From Escherichia coli O127:H6 str. E2348/69 (GTDB taxonomy: Bacteria; Pseudomonadota; Gammaproteobacteria; Enterobacterales; Enterobacteriaceae): a stretch of 64,000 nt of DNA. Every line of letters begins with the position of its first letter. Positions within the stretch are counted from its first letter, which is position 1. Position numbers: made by a program. The DNA lies in the NCBI RefSeq assembly GCF_000026545.1, contig NC_011601.1, one strand, 5' to 3'. This document shows, piece by piece, positions 9,001 through 12,000 of the stretch.

Positions 9001-12000
9001 GCTTTCGCCATCATCTTCTTCAGCGCATGAGAAACCGCAACAAAGCCAAAAGTGGCGGTCACCATCGTCGCCGCGCCAAATCCTGAGGCACAATCCATCC
9101 GCTTTGGCCCTTCCGCCGTGGCTTTCATCGCACAGACGGTGCCGTCTGACTGCGGGTACACCAGCGCTTCGGTAGAGAACACGCAATCCACGCCGAGCTT
9201 ACCTTTACTGTTTTTCACTACGCCAAAATCGCTTTTCAGGCGCTCGCGCAACTTCGCCGCCAACGGGTCCTGAATCGTTTTCGCCAGATCGGTAACCTGA
9301 ATCTGCGTCGGATCAATCTGCCCACCAGCGCCACCGGTCGTGACCAGCGGGATTTTATTGCGCCGACAATAAGCAATCAGCGCCGCTTTGGGCCGTACAC
9401 TATCAATAGCATCAATCACGTACGAATAACCGGCATTCATATATTGCGCTACGTTATCCGGCGTCACGAAGTCATCCACCACCGTTACACGGCACTCCGG
9501 GTTAATCTGGCGAATACGCTCCGCCATGACTTCCGCTTTTGCCAGCCCGACGTTATCGCGCAGAGCGTGAATTTGCCGATTGGTATTGGTGACGCACACA
9601 TCATCCATATCGATAAGCGTGATTGCGCCAATCCCCGTGCGCGCTAGCGCTTCCGCCGCCCAGGAACCGACACCACCGATACCAACCACACAAATATGCG
9701 CGTCAGCAAACAGTTGCAATGCTTTTTCACCATACAGACGCGCTGTGCCACCAAAACGCTGACGCCATGCATCACTAATTACCACAGACATAGCACCTCA
9801 GAATTAAAAAGGGTGAGGTTACCCCTCACCCTGTCATATCCGTAAAAACGGCATACAGAATATCATATCAGCCGCTAAAGACGTTACCTGCGCCCGGAGC
9901 GGTTTTCAGCACCCAGACACGTCCATAGTGGTTGTACCAACCTGCGCGGTGTCCGGCTTCCGGCCCGATCCCTTGATAGATATCGAAGTGTTGGCCTTTG
10001 ATTGCGCCACCGACATCCAGCGCCACCATCAGACGCAATTCGTACTGACCGTTAAATTTGCCGTTATTATCCAGCAGCGGCACTTCTGCCAGCAAGGTAG
10101 TACCTGGCGGAATAATTGAACGATCGGAGGCAACAGAAGCACGGCCAACCAGCGGCACCGCACTTGCCCCTTTCACCGGTGCAAAAGATTGCGGTTTAAA
10201 GAAGACGAAAGACGGGTTCTGTTCCAGCAGCTCGCGAACCTCAGCTTCACTGTGTGTTTCGCCCCAGTGACGAATCGCCTGCATCGACATATCTTCTTTT
10301 TTCACTTCGCCACGGTCGATCAACACCTTACCAATGCTGCGATAGGCATGACCGTTTTTCCCTGCATAGCTGAAAAAGTTAAGCGGACTGCCATCACCAA
10401 AGTCGATATACCCGCTACCCTGCACATCCATAATGAAGTTATCCATCAGGGAGTTACTGTAAGCGAGAATATATTTATCACTCAGCGCTCCTGCGTAGAT
10501 CTCCGCACGAGACGGCAGACGACCACGTTTTGGCGGCATACGGTAAATCGGATACTGGAACTCGCCCTGACGGGTATGGCGCGCCTGAATTACCGGCGTG
10601 TAATAGCCTGTAAACTGCACGTTACCATAGTTGTCGACACCTTCCATCTGCCAGGCATCAATGCCGAACTGGCGCATATTGCGGGTATCACCGCCTGCGC
10701 GCAGCCACTCTTGCACCGCGTTATAAACATTACTCTGGTTGCCATACAGACGCGGTGACGAATTACGGATATGGTTAATTTGCTCGGCAAAATCACCGGC
10801 ATTAATCGGCGCGCCAACGGCATCTGGCTGGTTCACCAGAGAGAAAGGCTGGGTAAATTTCCCGTCTTTATATTGCTGTCCGCGATCGGTTGGTTTGGAA
10901 GAGCAGGCGGCAAGCATTGCCACAACCGTGCCCATAAGAAGGTACTTTACCCAACGTCCTTTCATTGTTCTCTTCTTCAGGTTAAAAAATAAGGCGCAAC
11001 GAAGATAACAAACCACCGCGTTTAATGAAATGAGCAGCCTCTCCCTGACGCAAATTTTGCACAAAAAACAGGCTTTAGTGATTTGTTTTTGTTCAAAATC
11101 ATGCCGAATCCGTGATCGGGGTAAAAAAAAGGTTGCATGAAAACGCGAGCGGAGTATAGTGCGCATCCACGGACGCGGGGTGGAGCAGCCTGGTAGCTCG
11201 TCGGGCTCATAACCCGAAGGTCGTCGGTTCAAATCCGGCCCCCGCAACCAATTAAAATTTGATGAAGTAAAGCAGTACGGTGACGCGGGGTGGAGCAGCC
11301 TGGTAGCTCGTCGGGCTCATAACCCGAAGGTCGTCGGTTCAAATCCGGCCCCCGCAACCAATCAAAATTTGATGAAATAAAGCAGTACGGTGACGCGGGG
11401 TGGAGCAGCCTGGTAGCTCGTCGGGCTCATAACCCGAAGGTCGTCGGTTCAAATCCGGCCCCCGCAACCAATTTATTAGAATGCTGACAAACCGCAATGT
11501 GTTCTACAAATTGCGGTTTTTTTGTATTTAAAATCTTCGTTCGCTGAACTCACAACACGTTTTTTATCTCCCTTCCTGCGAAGTAACCAATTATCGACTG
11601 GGCAACGTGTATCCCGGTTTGCTGGTATGACTCAACGGTGGCGGCCGCAATATGCGGCGTTGTAATGATATTTTTGGCATGTAGCAGTGGGCTAAATTGC
11701 GCCAACGGTTCAGAGCTAAACACATCCAGCGCCGCAAACACATTTCGTTCTTCAATCACCTGAAGTAAAGCGCCCTCATCCAGCAACTTTCCCCTTGCGG
11801 CATTGATGATCAGAGCACCATTGCGCATCATCGACAAATATTTATGACTAATGAAGTTCTCCAGCTCAGAAGAAAAAGGCAAAAGAACAATGATGACATG
11901 CGACTGCATAAAGATATCTTCAATTGATACAAACTGAACTCCAGCTTTGTCAGCAACCTGATAGTCGGGTTGTTTGTCAAAAGCTAAAAGCTCAACATCA

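Follow-up and report, generated by a model that had tools for sequence, protein, structure and literature searches.

We analysed a 64,000-nt stretch of DNA (hereafter the window) from Escherichia coli O127:H6 str. E2348/69 (contig NC_011601.1), in which three initiator transfer RNA (tRNA) genes lie in tandem and are followed by a 5.5-kb block of variable DNA. The 8.6 kb around the tRNA array were 100% identical to the E. coli E2348/69 chromosome, and the RefSeq gene order was csdA, csdE, tcdA, mltA, three tRNA-Met genes, five minus-strand genes, amiC and argA. The locus is almost certainly the classical chromosomal metZWV operon of E. coli, situated between mltA and amiC, and nothing was found that contradicts this identification. 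The same three 77-nt genes lie between mltA and amiC in K-12 (derivative J53), where the 45 nt of promoter and leader upstream of metZ and the first spacer are identical to those of E2348/69, whereas the second spacer is slightly different, the terminator has another sequence, and metV and amiC are separated by 73 nt instead of 5.5 kb. Across Enterobacterales, the order mltA, array, amiC is kept in most loci and three-copy arrays predominate. A metZWV operon beside a named island is a textbook locus that was already known, with no novelty in kind.

Initiator tRNA genes and promoter of metZWV

ARAGORN placed three tRNA-Met(CAU) genes on the plus strand (Table 1), all three with the anticodon cat, and the Rfam tRNA matches coincided with them. 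A script comparison showed that metZ, metW and metV are identical over 77 nt, and Tandem Repeats Finder reported a tandem repeat of 2.7 copies, with a period of 110 bp and 98% matches. Chance cannot account for three exact copies of 77 nt. The initial annotation, made from the sequence alone, had described three identical 77-nt tRNA-fMet genes with two near-identical 33-nt spacers between them; ARAGORN, Rfam and the script agreed on the genes, and the spacers have the sequences it quoted and differ at two positions. The span it assigned to the operon starts at the first base of the -35 hexamer (11133) and ends one base beyond the terminator U-run (11524). The second spacer varies between lineages; K-12 and strain SW07099 are among those that carry such variants.

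The gene sequences carry the marks of an initiator tRNA. Positions 1 and 72 form a C1 x A72 mismatch, with base 1 unpaired in the fold, and the anticodon stem contains three consecutive G:C pairs (GGG:CCC, in TCGGG-CTCATAA-CCCGA), whose importance in initiator tRNA has been described (PMC3017606). The A11:U24 pair is also present, as read from the sequence of the D stem (GAGC/GCTC). A reading of the genes as elongator tRNA-Met was dropped because C1 x A72, GGG:CCC and A11:U24 are all present. The variable loop (AGGTC) contains G46, whereas the tRNA-fMet2 encoded by K-12 metY has A46 (bioRxiv 10.64898/2026.04.16.719103); the genes therefore encode the tRNA-fMet1 form and not the A46 form of K-12 metY.

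A-rich stretches upstream of rRNA and tRNA promoters can act as upstream (UP) elements, and the P1 promoters of rRNA operons, such as rrnB P1, have a 16-bp spacer and a GC-rich discriminator. The metZWV promoter resembles rrnB P1 in its 16-bp spacer, in the discriminator after the -10 hexamer, which starts with GCGC, and in the A-rich stretch upstream of the -35 hexamer. Its -35 hexamer, TTGCAT, sets it apart from rrnB P1, and an UP-element role for the A-tract is putative. The 13 nt at 11161-11173 (GCGCATCCACGGA) run from the -10 hexamer straight to the 5' end of metZ. Together, the two hexamers match the consensus at 8 of 12 positions, which is a moderate match.

In K-12, the metZWV promoter and its start site have been mapped, single changes in or beside the -10 hexamer sharply reduce tRNAfMet1, the operon is the source of most cellular initiator tRNA, and ppGpp (guanosine tetraphosphate) down-regulates it (PMC3017606). 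The sequence features combined with these K-12 experiments support the label "stringent-type" as the probable character of the promoter in E2348/69. The initial annotation had called it a strong stringent-type promoter; the second part of this description is in keeping with the GC-rich discriminator and the K-12 response to ppGpp, whereas strength cannot be read from hexamers that match at 8 of 12 positions.

Terminator and variable DNA beside metV

The 60 nt 3' of metV contain a long hairpin, with its core at 11489-11519, and then a run of seven U (11517-11523). The hairpin and U-run begin 18 nt beyond metV, and the fold has an energy of -19.3 kcal/mol with z = -4.95; none of 200 shuffled sequences folded as well. 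These values bear out the terminator that the initial annotation had placed after metV. Its further statement, that accessory DNA starts after this terminator, did not hold: similarity between K-12 and the window ends by 11481, at most 11 nt past the CCA end, so that the terminator is included in the variable DNA. K-12 carries a different hairpin after metV, GAACACCCTAACGGGTGTTTTTTT, and then a second hairpin for amiC.

A scan for tandem initiator tRNA junctions, with each species represented by a single genome, yielded 64 loci, 63 of which were usable for the terminator. The K-12-type terminator (CACCC, short loop, GGGTG, T-run) stood right after the last tRNA gene in 46 of the 63 loci, and its bearers included E. 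albertii, Salmonella, Citrobacter, Enterobacter, Klebsiella, Kluyvera, Dickeya and Yersinia. The terminator type of E2348/69 occurred in only two loci, both from Escherichia. Because of this distribution, the K-12 type is considered ancestral. By this comparison, the hairpin at 11489-11523 belongs to the variable segment and would have arrived with the inserted DNA.

The variable block has a GC content of 33-45%, compared with 50-57% in its flanks, and was found in 1,681 of the 5,426 complete E. coli genomes surveyed (31%). All of its genes lie on the minus strand and are transcribed towards the tRNA operon; the "downstream accessory operon" of the initial annotation thus faces the array. The gene for the phosphotransferase system (PTS) EIICB is split into open reading frames of 384 and 129 amino acids; it is a RefSeq pseudogene with an internal stop and is intact in sequence type (ST) 131. 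The sugar system of the block is probably non-functional in E2348/69. The block corresponds to c3405-c3410 of PAI-CFT073-metV, a 32-kb pathogenicity island (PAI) of a uropathogenic strain that combines these genes, annotated as a PTS of maltose/glucose type, with a type VI secretion system (T6SS) and occupies the same site at the 3' end of metV. The T6SS of the 32-kb PAI-metV of CFT073 has been described previously (PMC3573123; PMC2907695), as has the retention of c3405-c3410 in E2348 (PMC2831201); compared with PAI-metV, the T6SS part is missing in E2348/69.

The gene metV is among the tRNA insertion sites most used in E. coli (PMC7545054), in line with the tRNA-proximal hot spot proposed in the initial annotation. 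We counted the occupancy of the site by junction queries over the complete E. coli genomes. The site next to metV was empty, as in K-12, in 3,503 genomes, was followed directly by the block, as in the window, in 596, and held a T6SS island in 1,335 (about a quarter). The T6SS island of ST131 strain 2019_APHA measures ~42 kb and separates metV from the block; that of SW07099, 28 kb long, separates metV from a K-12-type terminator. Each island is bracketed by direct repeats whose first 14 nt are the end of metV: a perfect 41-bp repeat in 2019_APHA and one of 17 bp in SW07099. No annotated integrase was present in the island stretches examined, which covered the SW07099 island in full and, of the ST131 island, the first 3 kb and the distal 33 kb. 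The SW07099 variant, which is without the sugar block, has a gene for a MucR-family regulator at its distal end, before the tRNA-end repeat; this gene is absent from the ST131 version.

The junction in the window could represent either a site that was never occupied or the loss of an island through the 41-bp repeat, and the sequence fits both. Former presence of the PAI-metV T6SS island in E2348/69, with loss by recombination between the 41-bp repeats, is a serious but tentative possibility to which we give slightly less than even weight. Such a loss would leave exactly the junction seen here, most B2 strains carry the island, the ST131 repeat is perfect over its 41 bp, and 131 of 134 positions agree between the window and the distal ST131 repeat copy with its flank. 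Furthermore, the ST131 block is ~99.2% identical to that of the window, and the 596 genomes with the block directly beside metV compare with ~1,085 in which the two are separated. However, a lineage that was never occupied predicts the same junction, the genomes with the block next to metV span 94-100% identity and thus show this state in several lineages, and no scar tells the two histories apart.

A classical tRNA-targeted integrative island, with the tRNA array as its attachment site, is a possible but rather doubtful account of the block itself. The left border lies at most 11 nt from the CCA end of metV, GC content is low, the block is present in a minority of genomes (31%, as above), and the neighbouring T6SS island does have tRNA-end repeats. 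Homologues of the dehydrogenase (67% amino acid identity) and of the PRD antiterminator (71%) are found downstream of the tRNA-fMet array of Atlantibacter hermannii, with another trailer, and the association of such a block with this site therefore reaches beyond Escherichia. Against this account, no integrase gene was found in or beside the block among the annotated genes and Pfam matches. A search of the whole window with up to 2 mismatches, made for the 14-nt tRNA end (GGCCCCCGCAACCA) and not for the full 41-nt stretch, gave only the three tRNA genes and a site at 51197 at chance level, and hence no second tRNA 3' end. The right border, moreover, is the amiC stop codon, and the ancestral terminators are lost. 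The word "anchor" used for the array in the initial annotation consequently fits the left border and is not matched by an integrase or a distal tRNA-end repeat; anchoring of the block to the tRNA would follow from its left boundary only.

B2 genomes with the T6SS island carry GCGAGCAGAG in place of the GCGAGCGGAG of the window and K-12, at window position 11151, 4 nt upstream of the -10 hexamer. In K-12, a G-to-A substitution described as "just upstream of the -10" acts as a strong promoter-down mutation (PMC3017606), and it may or may not correspond to position 11151. A link between the promoter G-to-A change and expanded arrays was rejected, as a two-copy ST131 genome has the change too. The change appears to be a lineage marker of island-bearing genomes.

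Table 1. Features of the metZWV locus and its surroundings in the window
Feature	Coordinates	Strand	Basis or remark
mltA, conserved upstream neighbour	9868-10965	-	annotation, cross-species synteny
Eight-A run directly upstream of -35, putative UP-like element	11123-11130	+	sequence
-35 hexamer TTGCAT	11133-11138	+	consensus match 3/6
-10 hexamer TATAGT	11155-11160	+	consensus match 5/6; 16-bp spacer from -35
GC-rich discriminator (GCGCATCC) and very short leader	11161-11173	+	sequence
metZ, tRNA-fMet1 copy 1, CCA encoded	11174-11250	+	ARAGORN, Rfam, script
Spacer 1 (ATTAAAATTTGATGAAGTAAAGCAGTACGGTGA), AU-rich, 33 nt	11251-11283	+	same in K-12
metW, tRNA-fMet1 copy 2	11284-11360	+	ARAGORN, Rfam, script
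Spacer 2 (ATCAAAATTTGATGAAATAAAGCAGTACGGTGA), 33 nt	11361-11393	+	positions 3 and 17 unlike spacer 1
metV, tRNA-fMet1 copy 3; 3' end is insertion target	11394-11470	+	ARAGORN, Rfam, script, island repeats
41-nt stretch (last 14 nt of metV and 27 nt), ST131 repeat unit, single here	11457-11497	+	comparison with ST131
Variable 5.5-kb block absent from K-12; c3405-c3410 part of PAI-metV	11482-17036	-	annotation, Pfam, GC
Intrinsic terminator, hairpin AAACCGCAAU...AUUGCGGUUU and U7; island-type, not ancestral	11489-11523	+	fold
D-2-hydroxyacid dehydrogenase	11550-12497	-	annotation, Pfam
SIS-domain isomerase	12569-13165	-	annotation, Pfam
Class I/II aminotransferase, MalY/PatB-type	13168-14343	-	annotation, Pfam
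Disrupted PTS EIICB	14343-15923	-	annotation, Pfam
BglG-type antiterminator (CAT_RBD and PRD)	15955-16779	-	annotation, Pfam
amiC, conserved neighbour	17037-18290	-	block stops exactly at amiC stop codon

Elsewhere in the window, other RNA genes encode the small RNAs GcvB (6645-6850, plus strand), OmrA and OmrB (45403-45490 and 45606-45687, minus strand) and a tRNA-Gly(CCC) (58254-58327, minus strand).

Copy number of the array in E. coli and related species

The copy number of the array was surveyed in the 5,426 complete genomes. A 93-nt query over one tRNA-spacer-tRNA junction identified arrays of at least two copies, and a 183-nt query needing two junctions identified arrays of at least three. 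The results showed at least two copies in 5,194 genomes and at least three in 5,000 (about 92%), leaving about 3.6% of genomes with two copies and about 4.3% with one or none. Four or more copies were present in at least 18 genomes, a lower bound drawn from the best-ranked matches only, since the 373-nt four-copy query is fully covered by three-copy genomes too. About 8% of complete E. coli genomes are thus off three copies at metZWV, and close relatives can differ. The comparison across strains that the initial annotation had proposed as a check therefore shows three or more copies as the usual state.

With spacer 1 and spacer 2 denoted s1 and s2, strain MG1655p has one copy and no spacer. 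Two copies are present in O145:H28 RM13514, with an s2-like spacer, and in ST131 2019_APHA, with s1. The four-copy arrays of FDAARGOS_1260, GU2018_CL13 and OkiPb01695 have the order s1, s2, s2, and the five copies of ST95-32 are separated by s1, s2, s1, s2. Most of the variant spacer orders examined fit in-register unequal recombination between the 110-bp repeats. The expectation that the 110-bp units change in copy number is upheld by these arrays of one, two, four and five copies, most of which have spacer orders of the crossover type; XL10-Gold does not. In XL10-Gold (NZ_CP081008.1), four copies are separated by s1, s1, s1, whereas its K-12 parent has s1 then s2. Strain C25 (NZ_CP127314.1) also has four copies: a C17A change in the D loop is shared by copies 1 and 2, and copies 3 and 4 are canonical. 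The adjacent C17A copies suggest conversion or duplication within the array.

Three further O127:H6 assemblies (CP059840.2, LT827011.1 and LT903847.1) contain the same 1001 bases with three copies each, and the agreement of three independent assemblies argues that no collapse or expansion is peculiar to one record. In the scan of one genome per species, arrays ranged from two to six copies and three was the commonest number; S. enterica subsp. arizonae and diarizonae have two-copy arrays. The first spacer of the three-copy arrays of Citrobacter, Enterobacter, Pseudenterobacter and Atlantibacter measures 152-171 nt, compared with 33-45 nt for the second. Outside Enterobacterales, arrays in Ferrimonas balearica and Marinobacter nauticus hold five to six tRNA-Met genes of the initiator type, separated by spacers of mixed length.

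That the triplication or its variation is an assembly artefact of near-identical 110-bp repeats is highly improbable: collapse of such repeats can occur in short-read graphs, a derivative of K-12 MG1655 is among the one-copy records and the s1, s1, s1 pattern of XL10-Gold is implausible, but the three copies recur in about 92% of the surveyed genomes and in the three O127:H6 assemblies, three is the commonest state in other genera too, the expanded arrays have spacer orders as from real crossovers, and amplification of the locus has been selected experimentally in Salmonella.

The fitness consequences of initiator tRNA dosage have been addressed in the laboratory. Amplification of metZ and metW is reported to offset the loss of fmt (formylation) in Salmonella (PMC2859245; PMC11721125), and PMC9981150, citing Samhita 2014, states that fewer initiator copies are beneficial in poor media and harmful in rich media. 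Deletion of metZWV impairs growth under some conditions (PMC11480407). The metZ-metW array of Salmonella (Nilsson et al. 2006) is orthologous, lying between mltA and amiC, and recombination alters its copy number, which in turn has an effect on fitness. It has two copies and not three, and its amplification was selected in the laboratory in fmt mutants, in contrast to the variation among natural and laboratory genomes seen in E. coli.

Proposed working of the operon and its meaning

Transcription of metZWV would start from a sigma-70 promoter with a layout like that of rrn P1, comprising the A-tract upstream, the 16-bp spacer and the GC-rich discriminator after the -10 hexamer. It would yield one short transcript with three identical tRNA-fMet1 genes and would end at the hairpin and U-run 18 nt past metV. 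The AU-rich 33-nt spacers and a leader of roughly 5-9 nt would be removed by general tRNA-processing nucleases, and the product would make up a major share of the initiator tRNA of the cell. The 110-bp units may recombine out of register, which would give one to five copies among strains, with three strongly predominant. The 3' end of metV would act as a recombination target for foreign DNA. In E2348/69, the native terminator and the short spacer before amiC appear to have been replaced by the 5.5-kb low-GC sugar-utilisation block, presumably by integration, and the block would supply its own terminator to the tRNA operon. In other strains, a T6SS island occupies the same point between repeats of the metV 3' end, and the window represents the site without this island.

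Several points weigh against parts of this model. A consensus scan of 10900-11700 listed neither the promoter nor the terminator. This empty scan was not read as absence, because the -35 hexamer matches at only 3 of 6 positions and the fold gives a strong hairpin; internal bulges in the stem or the short 3-nt apical loop probably caused the scan to miss the terminator. Promoter strength and stringent control in E2348/69 would follow from the K-12 literature. The assignment of processing to RNase E, RNase P and exonucleases is likewise presumed from general knowledge. The block would have arrived by a route that left neither an integrase nor a distal repeat as marks. The s1, s1, s1 order of XL10-Gold goes beyond one crossover and likely reflects gene conversion or an artefact of assembly or polishing, and some of the public copy-number variants may be assembly errors.

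The variation at metZWV may constitute a standing, selectable polymorphism of initiator tRNA dosage in natural populations, and not assembly noise, which would make it the natural counterpart of the laboratory results on copy number and fitness; we consider the evidence for and against this reading evenly balanced. Depending on the state of insertion, metZWV is served by three unrelated or diverged terminators in different strains. For annotation, the lesson is that island borders beside tRNA genes are to be set by comparison and not by the first hairpin. The operon sets the supply of initiator tRNA, and this supply is established as a determinant of growth rate, start-site fidelity and the cost of resistance to peptide deformylase inhibitors. 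The copy-number survey provides a baseline against which adaptive initiator tRNA dosage in nature can be tested.

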